Counted from the first letter of the stretch, positions 12,317 to 22,925 are shown. The stretch is DNA of 64,000 nucleotides from Nitrospiraceae bacterium (GCA_050246315.1 JBFWWG010000002.1:492811-556810), one strand, 5' to 3'. Notes: a model not told the origin generated them from the letters alone. Program-made: numbers and translations.

Positions 12317-13477
12317 ATGAGGATGGACCACCTCCATCCGCGGCTCGCCGCCGCGCTCGGCATTGTTCGGTGCACCGCCCAAGCCATCCCTCTCGTCACC
12401 ACCGATTGGCCGAAGTTGATCGAACAGGCCGAGCGATATCGCCTGATTCCCCTGCTCCATGACCACCTGCTCCAAACCGGATTGTTCTCGACCCTGCCTG
12501 ACTCCGCTCACCAGGCATTACGGAGCCGGCTCGCCGAGATCGCTGCTCGGCAACTGTCGCTGACGTACGGCCTGACCGCCATCCTCAAACGATGCAAGGC
12601 GGCAGCCATTCCCTGTGCGCCACTCCGCGGGCCGGCGCTGACTTCAATGCTTGCCCCCTCCCTGTCCACCAGGGTGATGGAGGATATCGATCTGCTCATC
12701 CCCAAACGACTCCTTGGCACTATGGTCGTCCTGTTGGCAGATTTGGGGTATCGCCAGATCGAACAGCGCCCGGGCTTTGCACAGCGATTTTCGTATGCGA
12801 CATCGTTCGTCGCATTGAGGCCGGTTCCGCTCTGCGTGGACGTCCATTGGAGTTTGGCCTACCCGCCTCATCACGATCGCATCGACATGGAGGGAGTCTG
12901 GCAACGAGCCGAACAGAGGGAGTTTGATCGCGCACCCGGTTGGTCGATCAGCCTGCCGGACCTTCTGATCCATTTATGCGCCCATTGGCAGCATAAAGGC
13001 GGAAGGGGACCGATCTTGTGGCTCTTCGAACTGGATCAACTCATCCGCCGCAACCGGAATCTCGACTGGCACCTTGTTCGTGAACTGGCCCGCGACAGCG
13101 GACAGTGCCCGGCTGTGTGCAAGACTCTTATGGAACTGCGAGACCTCTATGAGACGCCGTTACCGGAATGGCTGCTCGATCGAGGAACTCAGTCCGGTTT
13201 GCCGAGCGCTTCTCTCGCAGAAATTGGTCCGTTCGAAGAATGGGCGCAGTTGGCCTCGTTACCGGATCTGTTCACCAAACTGCGCTACGCGGGCTCACTC
13301 GTCTGGCCCTCGCCAGAGTATATGCGCTGGCGTTACGGCGTCTCCAGTTCGGCGGCGCTGCTCTGGGCCTACCTACGCAGATCTGTTGAGCTAGGCTGGG
13401 CCGTGGCCCCCTGGCGACTGACTCGCCTTAGATCCTACATTTCGCGGTTCTCGTCTCGGTTTACCTTATTCAAATGA
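12317..13477 (+). CDS. nucleotidyltransferase family protein (NTP_transf_5-like)
   Basis: LRGPAL...RVMEDIDLLI, VDVHW, LIHLCAH motifs. Confidence 0.82.
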   Translation: MRMDHLHPRLAAALGIVRCTAQAIPLVTTDWPKLIEQAERYRLIPLLHDHLLQTGLFSTLPDSAHQALRSRLAEIAARQLSLTYGLTAILKRCKAAAIPCAPLRGPALTSMLAPSLSTRVMEDIDLLIPKRLLGTMVVLLADLGYRQIEQRPGFAQRFSYATSFVALRPVPLCVDVHWSLAYPPHHDRIDMEGVWQRAEQREFDRAPGWSISLPDLLIHLCAHWQHKGGRGPILWLFELDQLIRRNRNLDWHLVRELARDSGQCPAVCKTLMELRDLYETPLPEWLLDRGTQSGLPSASLAEIGPFEEWAQLASLPDLFTKLRYAGSLVWPSPEYMRWRYGVSSSAALLWAYLRRSVELGWAVAPWRLTRLRSYISRFSSRFTLFK

Positions 13478-13536
13478 TCGTATTCCTGCGTGCTTCTGTG
13501 CCATGGTACGATGCCTGCCAATTGGAAGATCCAGCA

Positions 13537-14037
13537 ATGGAACGCCCCTTCGACAAAGACCTCGAGTACATGCGACTGGCGATCGATGAGGCCACACTCG
13601 CCGCCGCACGCGGCGAAGTCCCGATCGCCGCCATCCTGGTCGCAGAGGACCGGATCGTCGCCCAGGGCCACAATTTCCGAGAACTCTGGCAGGACCCGAC
13701 GGCCCATGCCGAGATGATTGTCATCCGTGAGGCAGCCGCCAAGCAAGGCACCTGGCGGCTGATCGACACCACGCTCTATGTGACGCTCGAACCCTGTTCG
13801 ATGTGCGCGGGCGCGATTGTCCTGGCGCGGATTCCCCGCCTGGTGTTCGCCGCACCGGATCCCAAGGCGGGCGCCTGCGGCTCGCTGTTCAACATCACGC
13901 AGGACCGGCGTTTGAATCACAGGGTCGAGATCGTAAGCGGGTTGCTCGAACGAGAGAGCCAGGAATTGCTTCAGAGGTTTTTCCGAAGTCTGCGCGAAAA
14001 GGACGAGCGGCGGATGAGTTTGGACCCCGGCCTCTGA
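13537..14037 (+). CDS. tadA: tRNA adenosine(34) deaminase
   Basis: GEVPIAA, DPTAHAE, LYVTLEPCSMCAGA, DPKAGACGS. Confidence 0.95.
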   Translation: MERPFDKDLEYMRLAIDEATLAAARGEVPIAAILVAEDRIVAQGHNFRELWQDPTAHAEMIVIREAAAKQGTWRLIDTTLYVTLEPCSMCAGAIVLARIPRLVFAAPDPKAGACGSLFNITQDRRLNHRVEIVSGLLERESQELLQRFFRSLREKDERRMSLDPGL

Positions 14038-14053: not shown

Positions 14054-14845
14054 TCAACTCCCTTCTCCCAACCAGCAACGGACTAGGCGAAGGTCTGGTT
14101 GATAGCGCCGCACCTGCCATTCCACTCCTTCCGCCGCCACGGCACCAAGGTAGGTTGTCGAGAGTGGAACAAAGCGAACCAGCCAAGACCGACCTTTGAT
14201 CTCCCCTTGAAGCCACACCGTCGCGGAATGGCCACCCGGATGACCAATCACCTCGCAGTGTGACAGTCCTCTGGCCAGCCCCACCCCGGTGGCTTTGAGC
14301 ACCGCCTCCTTCGCCGTCCAATACCGGATGAACTCTGCCTTGTAGCGCGGGCGGGACAACAAGGCAAAGTGCGTCTGTTCTGCCGGAGAAAAATATCGCT
14401 CCACGATGGCCTGCGGCCGAACCGGTCGAGTCAGCGCCTCGACATCCACACCGACCGGCCGGCCACTCGCCACGGCAATCATCGTCATGTCGGCCGAATG
14501 GGCCAAGTTGAATTCCAGACGCGGTGACTCGGCCACCTTCACCATCTGAGGCTTACCATTGGCGTGAGCCTGAAACCGGAGTCGCTCGGGTTGTATAGCG
14601 AGGTACCGGCTGAGGACCAGACGCAAGAATCCGTGCGCCAGGACAAAGTGCATCCGATGAGTCGGATCAGCCAGGCGCGCCGCCCGTTTCCGTTCCTCCG
14701 GTGATAAGAGAGCCGTGAACCGCTGAAGATCGCGACGGAACGTCCTGACATCAGCCGTCCACAGGTGCACTGAGCGGGCATCCAGCGCCGGTCTCTCAAC
14801 CGGCTTGGCGGGTTTCCGTTTTTGTTCGGTTGGCATGGCCGTCAC
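14054..14845 (-). CDS. Sfp-type 4'-phosphopantetheinyl transferase
   Basis: GKP, FNLAHS, VGVDVE, WTAKEAVLKATGVGL. Confidence 0.92.
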   Translation of the reverse strand: MTAMPTEQKRKPAKPVERPALDARSVHLWTADVRTFRRDLQRFTALLSPEERKRAARLADPTHRMHFVLAHGFLRLVLSRYLAIQPERLRFQAHANGKPQMVKVAESPRLEFNLAHSADMTMIAVASGRPVGVDVEALTRPVRPQAIVERYFSPAEQTHFALLSRPRYKAEFIRYWTAKEAVLKATGVGLARGLSHCEVIGHPGGHSATVWLQGEIKGRSWLVRFVPLSTTYLGAVAAEGVEWQVRRYQPDLRLVRCWLGEGS

Positions 14846-16167
14846 GGGTTTACCGGTCGTCCGCGTCGACCATTTGAAAATTGTCGTCGCGCCAGGTTAT
14901 CTTCACGACTTCCCACGGCCGCAACGGAGAGGTGACGGAGTGGCCGAACGTGCCGGTCTCGAAAACCGGTGTCTGGGTAACTGGACCGAGGGTTCAAATC
15001 CCTCCCTCTCCGCCATTTTTCAATAGCTTGTGACGCTGTTTCAGCGGGGGTGATACCTAGAATCGCCTCAGGTGTCACCGGAAATGTAACCTTTTTCTCC
15101 TGAATGTACGCCCCTAGCTTCGCGGCAGCCTGCCTCAGGTCTTCCTCACTGGTGATGTTGTATCGGTCAAATACGGAGCGCGTCTTGTGGCCGCTGATCT
15201 TCATGGCCACGGTCTCAGGAACGCCCGCACGGACAAGATTTCGCACTCCGGTGCGCCGTAGGTCATGGAAGGTCCTATTCTCGACGCCTACGCGCTGACA
15301 GGCCGCTTGCCAGCCATGTACGAGGTTACTGAATGGCTTCCCGTTCCGGTGACAGACATAGGGGCAATGCGGATAGTCTCGGTCTCGCAGTTCCTTGGCC
15401 TTCTGGATCACGCGGAGGAAATCGCCCGTCATGTAGATCACGCGGGGCTGATTGGTCTTGGTTTGCTTGGCCGCCAGTCGGATGCAGCCTTCGGTCTCGC
15501 CTAATTCCACCTGCTCCCAGCGCAACCCCTTCTCACTGATGATTTCTCGCATCCGCATCCCGGTATAGTAGCCAATGGTCATGGCGACCTTGAGGTAATC
15601 CGGCGCGGCGCCCCGAACTGATAAAAACTCGTCATGCTCCAGGAAGCCTTCCCGCACATTGTTCTCCGCCAGCCGAGGGAAATGCGGAATCTGTCCTACC
15701 TTGGGAGGCGTTTGCCGCTGTCCCAGAATCATCATACGCTTGAGGGCATCAAGGTCTCGATTGACTGAGGCAGGCGCAGCCCCTTCCCCTAGCCGCTTGT
15801 CCACAAACTGCTGTAGACGTTGGGTGGTGATTGCGCTTACCCGCATTCCTCCGAAAACGGGTTTAAGTCGCTCGATGTTGTACTCCCGTCTGTCCCATGT
15901 CTTCAGCCCTTGAATTCGATAGTCTCGCTTCAGGTCTTCAACAAGGTCCTCAAACTTAGTCCGCTGAATCAGCGGGCCTACCCGCTGTCCGTCTAGAACC
16001 TTGCCTTCAGCCCGCTTCAAAACCGCCTGTGCCGCTCGCCTGTCATACCTCTCGGTAGACTGATAGATAGGTTTCCCATTGTCGAAGTATTTCATCCACC
16101 AGGGGCCAACCTCGACGCGCGCACCAGTGGCCGGGTCCTTCTTCTTGCGGCGATAGAGCGTCCCCAT
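14842..16167 (-). CDS. tyrosine recombinase/integrase
   Basis: TGMRMREI, TKT, FHDLRR, SGHKT, FDRY catalytic set; ORF extends antisense across the tRNA. Confidence 0.95.
   Translation of the reverse strand: MGTLYRRKKKDPATGARVEVGPWWMKYFDNGKPIYQSTERYDRRAAQAVLKRAEGKVLDGQRVGPLIQRTKFEDLVEDLKRDYRIQGLKTWDRREYNIERLKPVFGGMRVSAITTQRLQQFVDKRLGEGAAPASVNRDLDALKRMMILGQRQTPPKVGQIPHFPRLAENNVREGFLEHDEFLSVRGAAPDYLKVAMTIGYYTGMRMREIISEKGLRWEQVELGETEGCIRLAAKQTKTNQPRVIYMTGDFLRVIQKAKELRDRDYPHCPYVCHRNGKPFSNLVHGWQAACQRVGVENRTFHDLRRTGVRNLVRAGVPETVAMKISGHKTRSVFDRYNITSEEDLRQAAAKLGAYIQEKKVTFPVTPEAILGITPAETASQAIEKWRRGRDLNPRSSYPDTGFRDRHVRPLRHLSVAAVGSREDNLARRQFSNGRRGRPVNP
14926..15015 (+). tRNA. tRNA-Ser(CGA)
   Basis: GGAGAGG...CCTCTCCGCCA acceptor stem with encoded CCA, anticodon arm CCGGT-CTCGAAA-ACCGG, long variable arm, GGTTCAAATCC T-arm. 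Confidence 0.95.
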
Positions 16168-16180
16168 TGCCTAACCCTCC

Positions 16181-16366
16181 CTACTCGTCTGCAACCAGGT
16201 CAGCGACTTTCACCCTTAACGTCCTTGCAAGCCGACGCAATGTAGTAAGCGACACATTGGCTTTCCCATTCTCCAAGTTACAAAGGTAGGTGTAACTCAT
16301 CCGCGCCTTGTCGGCTAACTGCTTTTGGGTCAGACCCTTCTCTTGGCGAACCGCTTTCAGGCGCAC
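16181..16366 (-). CDS. XRE-family HTH regulator
   Basis: RQEKGLTQKQLA...YLCNLENGKANVSLTTLRRLA. Confidence 0.9.
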   Translation of the reverse strand: MRLKAVRQEKGLTQKQLADKARMSYTYLCNLENGKANVSLTTLRRLARTLRVKVADLVADE

Positions 16367-16379
16367 GGCATATACCCTC

Positions 16380-16423
16380 TATACAGTAATTACTTTATAC
16401 AGTACTGTCTGGCAGGGTGTCAA
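16380..16423 (-). promoter_or_regulatory. putative promoter/operator for xre-int
   Basis: Minus-strand TTGACA (16423-16418), 18 bp, TATAAA; direct repeat TATACAGTA at 16380 and 16396 and palindrome ACAGTACTGT overlap the -10 region. Confidence 0.45.
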
Positions 16424-16680
16424 GATGCCTGGCCCAGTTCCTCACAGAATTTGTTCCGATCGATAAACTCGTCCATATCCCTCACGTCTACATGGACCCG
16501 ACCCCCTGCCCGTACCGAGGGCAGCGCCCCATCCCAGATCAAGCGGCGAACCGACCACGTAGACCGGCCTAAATAAGCCGCTGCCTCGGCAAGCGTGTAG
16601 AGTCTTTTGGCCTGGTACCGGCTCTTGATGACTTGGCCAGTCCCTAAGCTCTGCCCATCGGGACCGTTCGCCCCGCTCAT
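16420..16680 (-). CDS. excisionase-like HTH protein
   Basis: LYTLAEAAAYLGRSTWSVRRLIWDGALPSVRAGGRVHVDVRDMDEFI. Confidence 0.88.
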   Translation of the reverse strand: MSGANGPDGQSLGTGQVIKSRYQAKRLYTLAEAAAYLGRSTWSVRRLIWDGALPSVRAGGRVHVDVRDMDEFIDRNKFCEELGQAS

Positions 16681-16943
16681 CGCAGCCGCCTCACCAGATC
16701 GAGCGGAATCTTCACCAGCCGCTCGGTCTTAGGATGCCAGACCAGGACCGCCCCATCGGGATAGGTGGCCAGAATTTCGCCCGTACAGGGCCCAAAGAGC
16801 GGGCTGGTCCACCGGACCGCTTGGCCGGGCTCCATCCGGCGGGCTGGCTTGCTGACCGTCGGTTCGTCCATCGCGTGCCCGACTCGTTCGGCCTTCCGTG
16901 GACGGTTGGCAATCTCAAGCGCCCGCTGCAACAGATCGTCCAT
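16677..16943 (-). CDS. hypothetical protein of the element
   Basis: ATGA overlap with the downstream gene; ATG 16943 preceded by GAGG. Confidence 0.6.
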   Translation of the reverse strand: MDDLLQRALEIANRPRKAERVGHAMDEPTVSKPARRMEPGQAVRWTSPLFGPCTGEILATYPDGAVLVWHPKTERLVKIPLDLVRRLR

Positions 16944-17021
16944 TCCGCCTCTCTTTCTCCTTACCCCTATGAACCGCCACAGGCCGCCACACGCCACACA
17001 GTCGCCACAGCGGTTTTCTTT

Positions 17022-18482
17022 TCAATAACTTGCAGTTACGCCGCCTGTGTCGGATGTCCCATGTGTGGCGCTTTCCCCAGGGTATGAAAGCGGAACATAG
17101 CGGCTCACCAGTTCGTCGATCAGCTTCTTCTTCAGGTCGTACCCTCGCACAGTCGTTTTTCCGTCACGCCACTTGGCGGGGCGGAGCCCCAGCGGATGAA
17201 GCCGTGAGGCGAGCGCCCGTGGCGAGAGGGATTCCCATCCCAGCCGGTCCTTCACCTTCTCGATGAGGTCGGGGGTCGAAATGCTGACATGGGGGCACTC
17301 CCCGAGCGTGTCCCGCAGGACTTCCAGGATGCCGATCAAGGGCTCATCCCCGGAAAGAGCCGCCCGATCCTTGCCCATCCGCGCCGCCAGGTCGATCAGG
17401 CGATCCGTCAGCGAGGAGCCGCCTTCGGCATCGGCTACGGAGGTGATGGCCACGAGCGGTTCCCAGAGATTCACGGCGCGGTCATCGTCCAAGTTCGCCA
17501 ACCCGGCGAAGTCGCCTTTCTCGTAGCACCCCTCAATCGTCGCTGCGCGATCGAGCGCGAAGGCCGCGCACACGTCACGGGCAGCTTGGGCTAACCGCGA
17601 GAGATGGCGAGGAGAAAATCGGTCCACGCGCACGGAGGGCGGTTTTCGCTGGAGGAACAAGATCAGCGCCCGATCTTCGAGCGTCGATTCAAGCGCGGAG
17701 ATCGAGGCAATCACCCGAGGCACATAGGTCTCAAATTGCTCTTTGACCTGATTCCCGCCCACTTTCTTGTAGCGAGCGACCACGGCCCCACGGTGAAATC
17801 CGACATTCAGTACGCTGGTCATTGCGCTCCACCGTTCCCGGTCATGGGTCATGCCTTCGAGTTCGTCAAAAATTTGGACCCCGCCATCTTCTCTCGGTTC
17901 TCGGAAAATCTGGGCTTCCGTTGGGGAGGCCGTCGGGGGGTGTGCGTTGAATGCCAACAGGCTCACCACATCCAAGAGACGGCTTTTGCCGCATCGTTTT
18001 TCGGGAGAACGAAGCACCAAATACGGGAAGTACTCGAAGGCTTGATAGAGGTAGGTGCCGACAATCCAAACCGCCACCAGGAGCCCGGCATCTGGAGGCA
18101 GGATCACAAACCGGTTGACAAGCGATTCGAGATGGGCGATCAGCTCCGCTCCGTTCGGACGTTCCCCCTTGAGAAAGCGTTTGATACCGTCTCGCGACAG
18201 TGGCCCCGATCCGAGGCCATAGTCGATCGCTCCAAACGCTTCCGCCGGCAGAATGGTCCGATCCGACAGGACCACATGCGCGGCACCCTTCAGTCGAACA
18301 CCCAGACTCAACTTGCCCTCGCGAAAATCCTGTGGAAGCCGCGGGGGTGGTGTCGGTTCGGTCCCGTCCAGCAGGTCTTTGTATTGCGAGGCCTGATCGT
18401 GATCAGTATCGGCCACGCCGTTCAAGGCGGCCTTCGATAGCTCTTTAAGCCGCAGTGCGTCGGCGTTCATGTTGTTTGGCAT
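17022..18482 (-). CDS. DUF3631-like replication-associated protein
   Basis: WIVGTY...FPYLVLRSPEKRCGKSRLL P-loop variant, DE motif, WEPLVAI, C-terminal winged-helix-like LASRLHPLGLRP...RGY. Confidence 0.75.
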   Translation of the reverse strand: MPNNMNADALRLKELSKAALNGVADTDHDQASQYKDLLDGTEPTPPPRLPQDFREGKLSLGVRLKGAAHVVLSDRTILPAEAFGAIDYGLGSGPLSRDGIKRFLKGERPNGAELIAHLESLVNRFVILPPDAGLLVAVWIVGTYLYQAFEYFPYLVLRSPEKRCGKSRLLDVVSLLAFNAHPPTASPTEAQIFREPREDGGVQIFDELEGMTHDRERWSAMTSVLNVGFHRGAVVARYKKVGGNQVKEQFETYVPRVIASISALESTLEDRALILFLQRKPPSVRVDRFSPRHLSRLAQAARDVCAAFALDRAATIEGCYEKGDFAGLANLDDDRAVNLWEPLVAITSVADAEGGSSLTDRLIDLAARMGKDRAALSGDEPLIGILEVLRDTLGECPHVSISTPDLIEKVKDRLGWESLSPRALASRLHPLGLRPAKWRDGKTTVRGYDLKKKLIDELVSRYVPLSYPGESATHGTSDTGGVTASY

Positions 18483-19002
18483 CGCGTGCCTTTCCCTGAT
18501 CGTAATCTCGAAACCGCAGCGTATCCGCCACGTCCTCTAGAATCGTCGCCCGCTCCAGATCGCGACGAGCCTGTGCCACGGCATCCATTGCGCAGTCGAA
18601 GTCCTCATCTGTCCACGTTGAGGTGTCGAGTCCAGAGGCTGCGCGCAGCACCGCTTCAGCCCGTTGCCGCAGATCAAGCGCGGTCTGTTCAAATTCAAAC
18701 GCGGTCCGCACCGGATCAAACCGGGCAGTTGTCGGTTGGTTCGGCGGGCGGGAGCCGCGAGGAAGTGCGGCATCATGGAAGAGGTCGGAAACCCGGATGT
18801 TGAGGGCTGCACAGATGGCGGACAGCTCACACCCCGCGAAGCAGCGGAGCAGTAACCCGCGTTCCCCTTGAGCGACTGACAACGATGGGTTGCGATCCGC
18901 ATGCGCCGGGCACCGCGCTTGCCAACCGCGGGAAGTTCGGCGCGTGGGTCCTCCGAGTCGTGAAAGGAAGTCGTCGATGGTCACGGCTGCCCTCCCGATC
19001 AC
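18445..19002 (-). CDS. primase-type zinc-finger protein (CHC2-like)
   Basis: WQARCPAHADRNPSLSV...LLRCFAGC. Confidence 0.78.
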   Translation of the reverse strand: MIGRAAVTIDDFLSRLGGPTRRTSRGWQARCPAHADRNPSLSVAQGERGLLLRCFAGCELSAICAALNIRVSDLFHDAALPRGSRPPNQPTTARFDPVRTAFEFEQTALDLRQRAEAVLRAASGLDTSTWTDEDFDCAMDAVAQARRDLERATILEDVADTLRFRDYDQGKARDAKQHERRRTAA

Positions 19003-19166
19003 TTCTTGTTGTTGGCGGTTTCAACAAACGCACTAAGATCCTCGGGCCTGACAAGGACTCGACGGCCCAACCTGACAACGGGGAGCCTACCATCCCGAAT
19101 CCAACGACGAATCGTACTCTCACCTACCCGCAACTCCGATTTGACTGCGTGAATGTCTTTGAGCAT
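18999..19166 (-). CDS. AlpA/excisionase-like HTH protein (55 aa)
   Basis: Own translation MLKDIHAVKSELRVGESTIRRWIRDGRLPVVRLGRRVLVRPEDLSAFVETANNKK; GGAGG RBS; stop overlaps GTG of the primase-like gene; missed by ORF track. Confidence 0.85.
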   Translation of the reverse strand: MLKDIHAVKSELRVGESTIRRWIRDGRLPVVRLGRRVLVRPEDLSAFVETANNKK

Positions 19167-19307
19167 GAAACACCTCCGTTGAGTTGTAGTGATCGTTCAC
19201 AAGGTAGATGATAGTTCCTTTCAGAGAAGGAACAATGGACAGATAAGAGAAATGAAAGTGTCTAAGATTTGGGCAAGGCGGCGGGGGGATCTGCTAACGG
19301 GATCAGT

Positions 19308-20015
19308 CTATGTGGAGCGCCTGTCCTCGAACAGGAGAGCAAACTCGCCCTTAAGAATCTCAGGTCCCTTGTCCTTCAGGTGCTGGAGCGCCCTCTTGGC
19401 CTTGTTGGCAGCGCCACGGTCCTCCGTGTCTACTGACGCAGCCTGCAAGGCCATCACAGCATGTCGCAAGTGTTCTAAGGCGATTCTATGTGTCCGTTTC
19501 CTGGCTCGATACAGCCTCTTGTCACTCGCGCCTAGGAACGCCCGCCGTACTTGGACAGGCGTGCTCAGGCCTTGGAGGTCCGCCGCAGCGATTCGACGAC
19601 CCAGCAGCTTTGTAAGGGCATCGGCCAACTCCCTGGTTCGAGCGATCTGGTTGCGAATACGCCTGGCGTTGCGCCAGATTCCAGGAAGTGTCTCCTTAAG
19701 ATGTTTCTGTTCCGCTAACATCGCTTGATCTCTAGCATCTGCCCGGCGCGCCCTCATATCTGGCAAGCGGGGATTTCGGGCCTGCTGGAGTGCCCACTTC
19801 AGAGCGGCGGTTTGCCCATCTCGGCCCCGGCGTGCAGCGTATTCGCGGAGAAATTCCTCTACCCAGACCCGATACCGCTTGTACGTGTCAGGATCATGCT
19901 GCTTGAGAAGTGTTTCCAGTCCTTCAGTGAGGGTCTGGAAAAATTGTAGTTGTTCGCTTTTCCTCAGGATTCTACGGCGATCGTTGTCCGGCATCAGCCC
20001 CTCCCGTTGGAGCAT
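19308..20015 (-). CDS. hypothetical basic helical protein of the element
   Basis: 235-aa ORF co-oriented with the element backbone. Confidence 0.6.
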   Translation of the reverse strand: MLQREGLMPDNDRRRILRKSEQLQFFQTLTEGLETLLKQHDPDTYKRYRVWVEEFLREYAARRGRDGQTAALKWALQQARNPRLPDMRARRADARDQAMLAEQKHLKETLPGIWRNARRIRNQIARTRELADALTKLLGRRIAAADLQGLSTPVQVRRAFLGASDKRLYRARKRTHRIALEHLRHAVMALQAASVDTEDRGAANKAKRALQHLKDKGPEILKGEFALLFEDRRST

Positions 20016-20211
20016 CCCGAAATGGAGCCCGGCCAGCCGTCTCGGGTCAGCGGCGTTCGGGTGGCCTACGCGAGGTCGGGTGTACTGTTCGCGATCGAGC
20101 GTGGCGCGAGGCGTCCGATGACCAGCCGAGAAGCACCCCTGTAGTGCGGACTCTTGCTATCCCTAGCACGCCCACTCGCGAATGACAAACGAACCGGGCA
20201 GACTCAGCGGT

Positions 20212-20559
20212 TTACCTAGGATTATCAGTGTGTTGGGTGAGGCGGGATCGTAGTTGTACGAGCTGGTGATCGATCCTGCGAAGGAAGGGCCGACCTACTT
20301 TCCCCGCTCGCCGGCAGAGCGTCCGTTGGGACTCTGTAAGGAGGATCATGGCCGCCACTTCAGGAATCGCCCAGCACCGACGTGTGTATAGCTGGCCCCC
20401 ATGTCGCCAGTGGCGGACTACGAGCCTGGCGGGCAGACCGGCCTTCAACAGCCGACGCCTGGCCGCATGCCGTCCGACACCGAGCAGTAGCGCAATTTCA
20501 CCTACGGTCAAGCAGTCACGCGGAATCGTCTGACGGGCCCACGAATAATCCCTTGCCAT
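20212..20559 (-). CDS. hypothetical protein with HTH-like N-terminus
   Basis: LTVGEIALLLGVGRHAARRRL resembles an HTH. Confidence 0.55.
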   Translation of the reverse strand: MARDYSWARQTIPRDCLTVGEIALLLGVGRHAARRRLLKAGLPARLVVRHWRHGGQLYTRRCWAIPEVAAMILLTESQRTLCRRAGKVGRPFLRRIDHQLVQLRSRLTQHTDNPR

Positions 20560-20958
20560 GAATCCATTCTACACGGAACACGATCTTTGGCAACGCAGGG
20601 GCGCAATCGGGCATGATCTTGTGAGCGGTGACAGGTTGAAATTTTGGGGTAGCTTACTTAGACTCTCATGCGATTTGCCTTGGAGTAATGAGGACTGGCT
20701 CTAACAGGAGATGCAGCGCATCGATTGTGAGACGGGTCAAAGCTTTGCGAGGACTATCATGGCCGGAGAACAGATGTTTTTCGCCGAGCGCATCGTTGTT
20801 CGGGTACATGGGGGTCAATCGCTTACCCGCTATGTTTCTTCTTGTCTGCTCAATCGGCCTGGAGTGACTTCGCCGAAGCAACGACCGCATTCAAACGCAC
20901 GGATCATGGCACCATGTACTGTGATGGCAGCAAGAGCCCGAACAGCTGTGGTGGATCG

Positions 20959-22098
20959 ATGATGTCACGTGAGTGCAGGCTGCGGCCTAAGTGTTTCGGT
21001 TTTCTTCATTTTGTAGTCCTGTACCTGGTCTGTGCACCTAATTTGTCACAGGCACATGATGATTTATCCACGAGAGCGCCAGAGAGGGCCAGGCAGTTAG
21101 TTAAGGAGGCGACAGCGCCACATTCATGGGGAAAGATAAGCGAGGGCAAAGGTGGGTTGGCATGGCAGATTGAGCTACTCACTTTGGCAATTCACTATGA
21201 CGCACTTTACCATGAAGCCTGGTTCGAACGAGGAACAATCTACCTCCTTGTTGATGAACTCTATCTCGCCTATCGTGACATGACCGAGGCGATTCGTCTC
21301 GCGCCGGAACCTTCGGAGGAATACCGAAAGATGCGGGATGAACTGTTTTCCACGAAGGACTTTCAAAGGTCCGCTTTTGAAGCACGTGACGCTTTGTGGC
21401 AAGGAGTAAGGGAGCGTGCAAACTCCATGGGGCTGTCTGATGGGATATATCTGGCGCGATCCCATTATCTTCGCGGTCAGGCAAGCATGGACCTCGTTCA
21501 ATGCGAAGCGGCCGCGGATGATTTCTCAGCGGATGTTGCCAGGGACCCATATCATGCCAATGGCTATGTCTACAGAGGACGAGCACTTTACTGCTTGGGC
21601 CAATACGAAAAGGCTTTGGCTGATTTCTCGAAAGGAATCAATGCATTTTCGCATTGGGCTTGGGAGCGCGCCGCCGGAGCGGCTCATGTCTGGAAGGGTC
21701 GTGCGCTACGCATGCTGAAGCGGTATGCAGAGGCAGATGAGAACTTTAGTAAGGCTATCAGCATTGAACGAGAGATGAATACCGTCCCCAGTATGAATGT
21801 CTTATGCAATGCTTTTTATGGACGAGCATTAGTTAAGAAGGACCTGAATCGGTATGAGCTGGTCATCGAGGATCTCACTATAGCAGTTGAGCTTGCACCT
21901 GAATGGCCCCATCCTCAATCAACAATCCGAAGGGATGGACCGGACTATGCAGGGATTCCCCCGACTCGGGGAAATGTTTATCGAGTGATGGCGGATGCCT
22001 TTCATCAAATGGACGATAGGGAACGCGAGCATAGGGCGTGGCAGATGGCGTGTCGGTTCTATGATGCTGAGGCTTGTGAAAAGGTCTTGGCCAAGTAG
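20959..22098 (+). CDS. secreted TPR protein (element cargo)
   Basis: Signal-peptide-like segment ending SQA; TPR motifs (AWFERG, YVYRGRALYCLGQYEKALADFSKGI); visibly less GC-rich than the host. Confidence 0.8.
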   Translation: MMSRECRLRPKCFGFLHFVVLYLVCAPNLSQAHDDLSTRAPERARQLVKEATAPHSWGKISEGKGGLAWQIELLTLAIHYDALYHEAWFERGTIYLLVDELYLAYRDMTEAIRLAPEPSEEYRKMRDELFSTKDFQRSAFEARDALWQGVRERANSMGLSDGIYLARSHYLRGQASMDLVQCEAAADDFSADVARDPYHANGYVYRGRALYCLGQYEKALADFSKGINAFSHWAWERAAGAAHVWKGRALRMLKRYAEADENFSKAISIEREMNTVPSMNVLCNAFYGRALVKKDLNRYELVIEDLTIAVELAPEWPHPQSTIRRDGPDYAGIPPTRGNVYRVMADAFHQMDDREREHRAWQMACRFYDAEACEKVLAK

Positions 22099-22415
22099 AA
22101 CATACTCGTCATCAGGTCCCCCTTCCTTCCCCCCATTGCCCCCCCCTCCCCCTATAGCGCGAACCATCCGGCGGCTGCGGCGGGACAGATGATTGTGGGA
22201 GGCGACCCCTCAGCCGCGACTTTTCCGTTACCTTCATGTGTTGCCAGTATCGGCTGTCCGGGAAGTGTAACCGCAAGTGTCACCGTTGGGCCTCATGCCC
22301 ATCACACGCTATGCAACGCGATGCAATCCTTAGAATCGGCTAATCTTCGCTCCCGGTGTGGCTCTTCTCATCTTTCTGCATACCTGTATGATCCCCTAAT
22401 ACTTCATCCGATTGC

Positions 22416-22474
22416 TCTCGAAAACCGGTGTCTGGGTAACTGGACCGAGGGTTCAAATCCCTCCCTCTCCGCCA
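22416..22474 (+). repeat. att direct repeat (3' 59 nt of tRNA-Ser)
   Basis: Identical to 14957-15015. Confidence 0.95.
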
Positions 22475-22533
22475 AAGCGCCGCCTGCCAGGCTAGCCGCC
22501 ATTGGAGCCATTTCATCGCCGGGAAGCAAGTAC

Positions 22534-22662
22534 AGAGGGAGGGATTTGAACCAGGGGGTCTGCGGGGGATGTGTCCCCCGCATGGGGAGCATACGAGGGG
22601 GCTGGCCCCCTCTGTAGGAGCGGTCGGAGATGCTCCGATCGCGACTTCAAATCCCTCCCTCT
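22534..22662. repeat. mini-element with 17-bp inverted repeats matching the tRNA-Ser 3' end and three internal hairpins
   Basis: AGAGGGAGGGATTTGAA (22534-22550) / TTCAAATCCCTCCCTCT (22646-22662). Confidence 0.75.
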
Positions 22663-22925
22663 CCGCCATACCAACCTTCGGTTGTACCGGCCGCTCATTG
22701 GGCGAAGCCCCTCTTCATTGTCGCGGCCGGAGAAACACCGCCAGTGTTCCTTCCCTTGTTATGAACCGCACTTCGTGTGAACGGCGGGCTCTTCAAGCGA
22801 AGCTTCTCTTCATTGTCGCCCGCCGAGAAACACCTTTAACATCCTTCTGATCTCTCTTCTTGAGACCGCACTTCGCTTGAGCCGGTAACTGTTCCGCATT
22901 TTTTCTCACTGATGCAACCGGAGAG
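22663..22925 (+). repeat. structured ~69-bp repeat, tandem units (22671-22739, 22766-22834, degenerate ~22866-22925)
   Basis: Close match to 29082-29253; unit consensus ends CTCTTCATTGTCGCCCGCCGGAGAAACACC. Confidence 0.85.

Follow-up and report, generated by a model that had tools for sequence, protein, structure and literature searches.

A 64,000-nucleotide (nt) stretch of the genome of a Nitrospiraceae bacterium (GCA_050246315.1 JBFWWG010000002.1:492811-556810), referred to here as the window, contains an integrative element of 7.46 kilobases (kb), core to core, in the anticodon loop of tRNA-Ser(CGA). The integrase gene of this element (int) extends across the element's own attachment site, attP, and ends in a basic tail of 38 amino acids (aa) in the integrated state and in an acidic tail of 25 aa in the excised, circular state. 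We hold this geometry, with its two tails, with high confidence. The explanation that we favor overall, and regard as probable, is that recombination swaps the tails of an int gene that spans attP, that the circle form is the one under selection, and that the swap modulates the integrase (Int). The parts of this explanation differ in strength. The arm sites within int and the conservation of the arrangement across a clade of relatives are read directly from the sequence, and selection on the excised-form tail seems reasonably likely, whereas a real regulatory effect of the swap, for which we argue by analogy, is a tentative proposal.

We propose that, in the circle, the int frame would run past residue 358 through the P' arm, covering two arm sites and a CAA-N4-TTGA motif, then through the att core of 59 base pairs (bp), and, on the P-arm side, through 25 final codons up to a TAG stop. 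Integration would remove these last 25, acidic codons and fuse the frame to 38 basic codons made up of antisense tRNA and spacer. The circle form would be the selected, full-length gene and the inserted form an antisense-tRNA fusion. By analogy with the IntP and IntX forms of the phage Mx8 integrase, the exchange may modulate Int rather than turn it on or off.

The integrase and its two state-dependent tails

The integrase open reading frame (ORF; Table 1) has no stop ahead of the 59-bp att core and runs antisense through tRNA-Ser(CGA). By its catalytic residues and its match to the Pfam family Phage_integrase (PF00589, residues 188-337, E 3.5e-15), the protein is a tyrosine recombinase of the phage integrase family; PF14659 was also matched, and PF16795 was not. 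A 47-sequence alignment shows no variation at R205, H301, R304, H327 or Y336, and the N-terminus agrees with the family consensus. Because the Pfam catalytic match ends at residue 337, the same catalytic domain is present in both forms, as the initial annotation of this DNA had stated. The protein comprises an ordered enzyme (residues 1-358), a linker encoded over the P' arm (359-384), a core-encoded segment (385-403), and a tail encoded by antisense tRNA and host spacer (404-441). Codon 385 (TGG, the antisense of CCA) begins at 15015 and is the first core codon, and the inner edge of the core falls within codon 404.

After ...YPDTGFR, the integrated-state tail reads DRHVRPL...RPVNP. Its codons run antisense first to the 5' portion of the tRNA, then to an 84-nt spacer that holds a promoter-like site on the + strand (14874-14903). 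The circle-form tail, read downward from 22417, is EQSDEVLGDHTGMQKDEKSHTGSED followed by a stop, and the predicted circle-form protein has 428 aa, the same length as a homologue, P0002. Both tails agree exactly with the sequences given in the initial annotation, which had also placed the integrated ORF antisense to tRNA-Ser; the part of the tRNA that the frame reads through beyond the core is the antisense of its 5' portion. A GTGA overlap with the neighboring PPTase gene, proposed at the same time, exists if GTG at 14845 is the start codon of that gene, and ATG at 14836 is an equally possible start. An ssrA-like degradation tag was considered for the two tails; their endings, ...SED and ...VNP, are unlike that tag.

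Probable arm-type sites overprinted on int

A tandem pair of TGTMACC sites lies on each side of att, in the same orientation, and the P' pair falls within int codons (Table 1). TGTMACC occurs five times on this strand in the whole 64 kb, and four of these copies make up the two pairs, which are probably arm-type Int sites. In the AlphaFold 2 (AF2) model, the N-terminus of the integrase forms three strands (residues 3-10, 17-29 and 32-37) and a helix (43-58), and the best Foldseek match is full-length lambda integrase (1z1g_A, E 1.4e-9). The predicted N-terminal sheet and helix, together with the lambda Int fold match, would fit an enzyme that binds arm-type sites. With a predicted N-terminal arm-binding domain and arm-site pairs on both arms, the integrase is, as judged from model and motifs, of the lambda-type heterobivalent kind.

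Similar repeats are found in nearly all family members: just past the final helix of the enzyme, their DNA carries a direct repeat in tandem that follows the pattern GG(T/G)NACA. In 67 of 85 family loci, two exact copies of a 7-mer, spaced 11 or 12 nt apart, occur in tandem +40 to +125 nt after the catalytic Tyr (RYN) codon, compared to 0.8% of shuffles and 1 of 87 control segments inside the catalytic domain. At 24 loci the spacing is 11 nt, which puts the two copies in different reading frames (for example, G-H-N and G-T-I); it is therefore the DNA, not the peptide, that is conserved.

Two further motifs adjoin the att core and the P-arm pair. The first, CAA-N4-TTGA in int sense, is a conserved DNA motif next to the core; we do not claim it as a site for integration host factor (IHF), given that the spacer of the Thr-type motif is 5 nt. 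The second, a pair of ATGCAA sequences, is a second conserved type of site, and recognition by an accessory protein is a possibility. The order of core, tail, TAG, TTGC pair and arm pair is repeated with the same spacings in two relatives of the Ser type (L206 and L211) and in 13 Thr-type elements.

Conservation of the open frame among relatives

Loci were drawn from species-representative genomes, metagenomes and 300 Nitrospiraceae genomes, and integrases beside a tRNA were classed by the position of their stop. With duplicates included, the stop falls before the tRNA at 41 loci, in the 3' half of the tRNA at 2, and past the anticodon at 33, with no tRNA downstream at 24 and a contig end cutting the gene at 6. 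The corresponding numbers among 87 non-identical integrase bodies, to which the last class does not apply, are 34, 1, 27 and 25. With few exceptions, 135-189 nt separate the RYN codon from the 3' end of the tRNA. A quick maximum-likelihood tree was built from the 87 bodies, from which L093 and L094 were omitted because their bodies are cut. The window integrase falls in a clade of 34 rows (SH-aLRT 100), in which the stop lies past the anticodon in 25 members and ahead of the tRNA in none; the other 9 lack a full tRNA. Targets of this clade include Ser(CGA), Ser(TGA), Thr(TGT) and Thr(CGT).

Among the best 120 homologues, the RYN motif is followed by at least 64 residues in 89, by 48-63 in 11 and by fewer than 48 in 15, and 5 are cut. 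The C-termini of these homologues, which their sources assign to Nitrospira, can be recognized as tRNA T-arms translated in antisense, and all three registers with respect to the CCA end occur. The initial annotation had proposed checking whether homologous integrases keep the frame open across att; most close homologues do, namely these 89 and all 25 clade members that could be classified.

A viral-contig search with the integrase protein gave no match, and one with the alignment gave 72 distant loci (at most 48% identity). At six chromosomal loci with an integrase of the clade (L107, L108, L116, L119, L125 and L132), the ORF exits the tRNA-like core into non-tRNA sequence, and each tail is different. 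These loci are probably element-element junctions in tandem arrays.

Selection on the linker and the excised-form tail

The strongest alternative to a selected, functional tail is that the 3' end of int merely overlies attP, so that everything past about residue 360 is translated junk without effect on the enzyme. We give this explanation serious weight, although we consider it the less probable one. Stop codons provide one line of evidence that bears on it. Among 23 non-redundant sequences of the clade as defined by the tree, a stop interrupts the 17-codon linker ahead of the core in 1 when read in frame, versus 10 in frame +1 and all 23 in frame +2, the last because the TTGA motif falls in that frame. 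Only 39% of composition-matched linker shuffles are open. By these counts, the open linker frame exceeds chance, which argues against a passenger extension.

The excised-form tails provide a second line of evidence. We rebuilt these tails from attR copies at 30 loci and found a copy in 18, corresponding to 16 elements; no attR copy was found at L013, L059, L067, L087, L088, L091, L096, L205, L214, L217, L221 or L223. All 13 Thr-type tails are exactly 25 codons long, and the TAG that closes them is always at the same position. They are acidic (net charge -2 to -5) and Ser/Pro-rich, end in EWPG or PPLG, and contain no stop in frame 0, compared to stops in 9 of 13 and 7 of 13 in the other frames. 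Their codon-position diversity is 0.32/0.27/0.43, versus 0.39/0.44/0.41 past the stop. The Ser-type tails vary more in length, with 25 aa in the window, 18 in L206 and 17 in L211, and all are acidic with the same P-arm geometry. P0002, which is 88% identical to the window enzyme, has an orthologous acidic tail of 25 aa, 12 of them as in the window tail. It sits on an 8.5-kb contig, which we guess from its size to be a circle. Every cognate rebuilt tail, from the window, P0002, L206, L211 and the 13 Thr-type elements, is therefore acidic, a regularity that counts against translated junk. In one Thr-type element, L207 (the same as L011), attR-like copies occur twice, at distances of 7104 and 7837 nt from the tRNA and with cores of 46 and 32 nt, which suggests a tandem or nested remnant.

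A number of observations weigh against a tail that is selected, essential or universal, and favor the passenger explanation. The linker lacks codon periodicity: codon-position diversity is 0.13/0.08/0.57 in the body versus 0.57/0.44/0.55 in the linker of the Ser group, and 0.11/0.06/0.43 versus 0.20/0.12/0.20 in the Thr group. The ratio of nonsynonymous to synonymous differences (pN/pS, by NG86) in the Thr group is 0.65 in the linker, compared to 0.13 in the body, and synonymous sites of the linker are unusually conserved, about threefold more than those of the body (pS 0.24 versus 0.68). By these measures, the linker is barely selected as protein, and the different frames of the arm-site copies at the 24 loci described above fit the same picture. 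Selection on the Thr-type tails is also weak (pN/pS 0.65, versus about 1.0 past the stop), and five of the 13 are near-copies. A region search for further tails like that of P0002 gave 12 proteins, of which P0002 alone has the tail. AF2 predicts order up to about residue 358 and a confidence score (pLDDT) below 50 for residues 372-437, and therefore gives no hint of a folded tail.

Relatives of the element supply further points on the same side. L093 and L094 are 99.8% identical over 1888 nt and share a CAA-to-TAA change five codons before the core, followed by an insertion of 1 nt. Of the two, L094 sits in tRNA-Ser(TGA) as an integrated copy, and L093 is an int-core-P-arm junction, possible only from a circle or a tandem insertion, without a short acidic ORF on its P side. 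The truncated int in both junction states implies that a tail-less enzyme, or a helper in trans, suffices. Tails are heterogeneous elsewhere: that of L090 has 34 aa and a net charge of +4, and the charges for P0019, P0020 and P0010 are +1, +1 and -1, these four being at non-tRNA junctions where the arm may not be the cognate one. Outside the clade, 34 of the 87 relatives stop 2-65 nt short of the tRNA, and their geometry is the same. Finally, int of the lambda-type Pseudomonas phage D3 (26% identity) similarly abuts a tRNA-Ser-type attP and ends 4 nt before the annotated site, whereas the window ORF passes through the core.

On balance, we consider selection on the excised-form tail to be fairly probable, and a regulatory effect of the tail swap, such as the altered stability or directionality suggested in the initial annotation, to be possible at best. 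We also consider a more ambitious version of the tail-swap explanation, which we regard as doubtful. The tail could act as a sensor of integration state across the Nitrospiraceae clade, with the acidic tail, present only on Int made from the circle, tuning the enzyme toward integration and the basic antisense-tRNA tail stabilizing the insertion. The 3' end of the integrated int mRNA would be complementary to an abundant tRNA and would face the tRNA promoter, and Int might be lowered or altered as a result. Control of directionality could then come from gene geometry, beside the excisionase-like HTH_17 protein.

Evidence bearing on excision and on loss of the stop codon

The combination of a tRNA, an adjacent int and a distant repeat of the tRNA 3' end is, as a sequence pattern, the standard signature of a tRNA-inserted element. 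It is very unlikely that the 59-bp repeat is not the att site of a mobile element and that the circle form never exists. Such an explanation would be consistent with the contigs of four public runs, from which attP and attB junctions were not recovered; these were Logan contigs only, and unitigs break at the 59-bp repeat, so they give no verdict on excision. The lone joint near att in the public-run contigs, from 15017 to 22446 on one contig with a side of 26, matches neither attP nor attB, and RNA run X16 gave no contig spanning the int 3' end or att. In run X1, contig depth is 14.2 for the island and 37.6 for the flank, where contig depth is not the share of cells. Against the explanation stand the canonical layout, with tRNA, int, a repeat 7.46 kb away and matching arm pairs on both sides, the recurrence of this layout in 16 relatives, and the circle-type tail of P0002 on its small contig.

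Least probable of all is recent stop loss or decay, in which int is becoming a pseudogene and owes its long ORF to the chance effects of GC-rich DNA: about 100 stop-free codons are not very rare at approximately 60% GC and phage D3 int does stop just short of attP, but the open frame is common to the whole clade and to most of the best homologues, with every tRNA-adjacent clade member reading past the anticodon, the N-terminus and catalytic residues are intact, and the two core copies are 100% identical.

Comparison with known systems

The closest precedent for the window integrase is Mx8 IntP/IntX, not SSV1 or the mycobacteriophage repressors. As described in part of a review (PMC6070905), the Mx8 attP lies inside the int coding sequence, and integration creates a new 3' end that changes activity without abolishing it; a portion of the Islander paper (PMC4383910) describes both Mx8 and SSV integrases as reaching across attP. 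On these partial accounts, IntP and its prophage form IntX resemble the window integrase in being tyrosine integrases with a tRNA 3' target, an attP core in the int 3' end and an untouched catalytic domain. The window core occupies codons 385-404 of 441, downstream of Tyr 336, which is the Mx8-type arrangement, and translation of Mx8 Int has a tRNA-antisense-like stretch about 60 aa after the catalytic Tyr, close to the 48 aa of the window integrase. In a BLASTP comparison of the two proteins, the N-terminal 153 residues alone align (26% identity, E 2e-4). Mx8 Int differs in its length of 533 aa, with a far longer part after the core, and in belonging to a 49.5-kb phage rather than a 7.5-kb primase-bearing element.

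The initial annotation had drawn parallels to SSV1-type integrases and to mycobacteriophage repressors. The placement of att within a gene is indeed shared with these systems, yet Mx8 is closer than either. Archaeal suicidal integrases carry att inside int as a compact int-att module, a type called exclusive to archaea in part of PMC8371274. In the SSV1 type, so far as that account goes, integration splits the N-terminal from the catalytic part and inactivates the gene, whereas in the window the exchange involves only a tail that is predicted to be disordered. The Pfam domain ends at residue 337, 48 codons ahead of the core, which rules out an SSV1-type suicidal integrase. In mycobacteriophages BPs and Brujita, as part of PMC4557955 describes, the product of a gene that contains an att site depends on integration state. 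The gene split in those phages is the repressor; here the HTH_3 gene is unsplit and 1.2 kb from att. Integration-dependent immunity of the BPs type is ruled out, as attP is not inside the repressor gene.

The element, its target and its surroundings

The features of the element are listed in Table 1. tRNA-Ser(CGA) is the sole tRNA reported by ARAGORN, and a permissive-threshold Rfam scan gave nothing besides this tRNA above the gathering score. The element supplies the 3' 59 nt of the tRNA, and because the core begins at tRNA position 32, crossover would occur within the anticodon loop. No gene other than int and the tRNA touches att; both HTH genes are located at 16181-16680. At 17022-19002 (-), the gene for a DUF3631 protein of 486 aa overlaps an ORF of 185 aa that has a weak CHC2 zinc-finger match under the Pfam cut-off. 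These ORFs may form a primase-like replication module comparable to those of small satellite-type elements.

Table 1. Coordinates of the integrase gene, its two tails, the att and arm sites, and neighboring genes in the window
Feature	Position	Strand	Description
Integrase ORF, integrated state	14842..16167	-	441 aa; stop TGA 14842-14844
Integrated-state tail	14842..14958	-	Codons 404-441 + TGA; 38 aa; net charge +6
Excised-state tail	22340..22417	-	Codons 404-428 + TAG (22340-22342); 25 aa; net charge -6
att core, attL copy	14957..15015		59 bp, tRNA position 32 to CCA; exact direct repeat
att core, attR copy	22416..22474		59 bp, 100% identical to attL copy
TCAA-N4-TTG adjoining core	15020..15030		CAA-N4-TTGA in int sense, read S-Q-x-I-E; conserved DNA motif
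P' arm tandem pair TGTCACC / TGTAACC (probable arm-type sites)	15073..15091		12 nt apart, starts 15073/15085; within int codons (VTFPVT)
P arm tandem pair TGTAACC / TGTCACC (probable arm-type sites)	22266..22284		12 nt apart, starts 22266/22278; orientation as P' pair
ATGCAA, two copies	22311..22326		10 nt apart; between tail stop and P-arm pair; same position in L206, L211 and 13 Thr-type elements
tRNA-Ser(CGA), integration target	14926..15015	+	ARAGORN; Rfam tRNA 58.1 bits
Integrative element body	15016..22415		int, HTH_3, HTH_17, DUF3631, CHC2 zinc-finger primase-like ORF, TPR protein (ORFs and Pfam)
HTH_3 gene	16181-16366		1.2 kb from att, not split (Pfam)
HTH_17 protein, candidate excisionase	16420..16680	-	86 aa; PF12728, E 1.1e-10
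PPTase ORF	14054..14845		Pfam ACPS

Just upstream of the PPTase gene and tRNA-Ser, a zinc deaminase of 187 aa (MafB19-deam / dCMP_cyt_deam_1, TadA-like) is encoded at 13474-14037 (+); both it and the PPTase gene appear to be ordinary host genes. Beyond attR, an inverted fragment of the tRNA-Ser 3' end (22534-22552, 19 nt) is 100% complementary to 22450-22468, and a direct fragment (22637-22668) is 88% identical over 32 nt. Contigs of two runs omit about 170-178 nt between 22474/22477 and 22646/22653, with sides of merely 21-22 nt. The tRNA-Ser fragments past attR (22443-22669) may be relics of earlier insertions at the same tRNA. Farther on, a 64-nt repeat is present in two copies (22676-22739 and 22771-22834, 73% alike). 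Its 46 matches in the same genome mark it as a dispersed repeat, like repetitive extragenic palindromic (REP) sequences or miniature inverted-repeat transposable elements (MITEs), and its depth in metagenome runs is 107-249, versus about 14 for the island. Elsewhere in this genome (G000:C3:73471-73829; L002 and L005), a decayed integrase 3' piece adjoins tRNA-Ser(TGA); it is 46% identical to residues 317-435 and contains one TAA as well as one TGA. To judge from this match, the piece appears to be left over from another element of the same family.

Implications

The Mx8 arrangement, in which int rewrites its own gene through recombination, is not an isolated case. Among the small Nitrospiraceae elements of one clade, whose hosts are nitrite oxidizers, it is the rule, and it has survived several switches of tRNA target. 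An int gene that spans attP was already known from Mx8; what the present analysis adds is the clade-wide conservation of this arrangement, the overprinting of arm sites on coding sequence, and a conserved acidic tail in the excised form.

The family offers a clear case of coding DNA overprinted on recombination sites, with arm sites kept as DNA across differing frames. The apparent peptide motifs VTxxVT and SQPIE are DNA motifs, which is a warning for annotation. Integrase length and C-terminus vary with integration state in this family, and a genuine ORF can cross a tRNA gene in the antisense direction. If the tail swap is regulatory, it would give an element a minimal means of sensing its own integration state.

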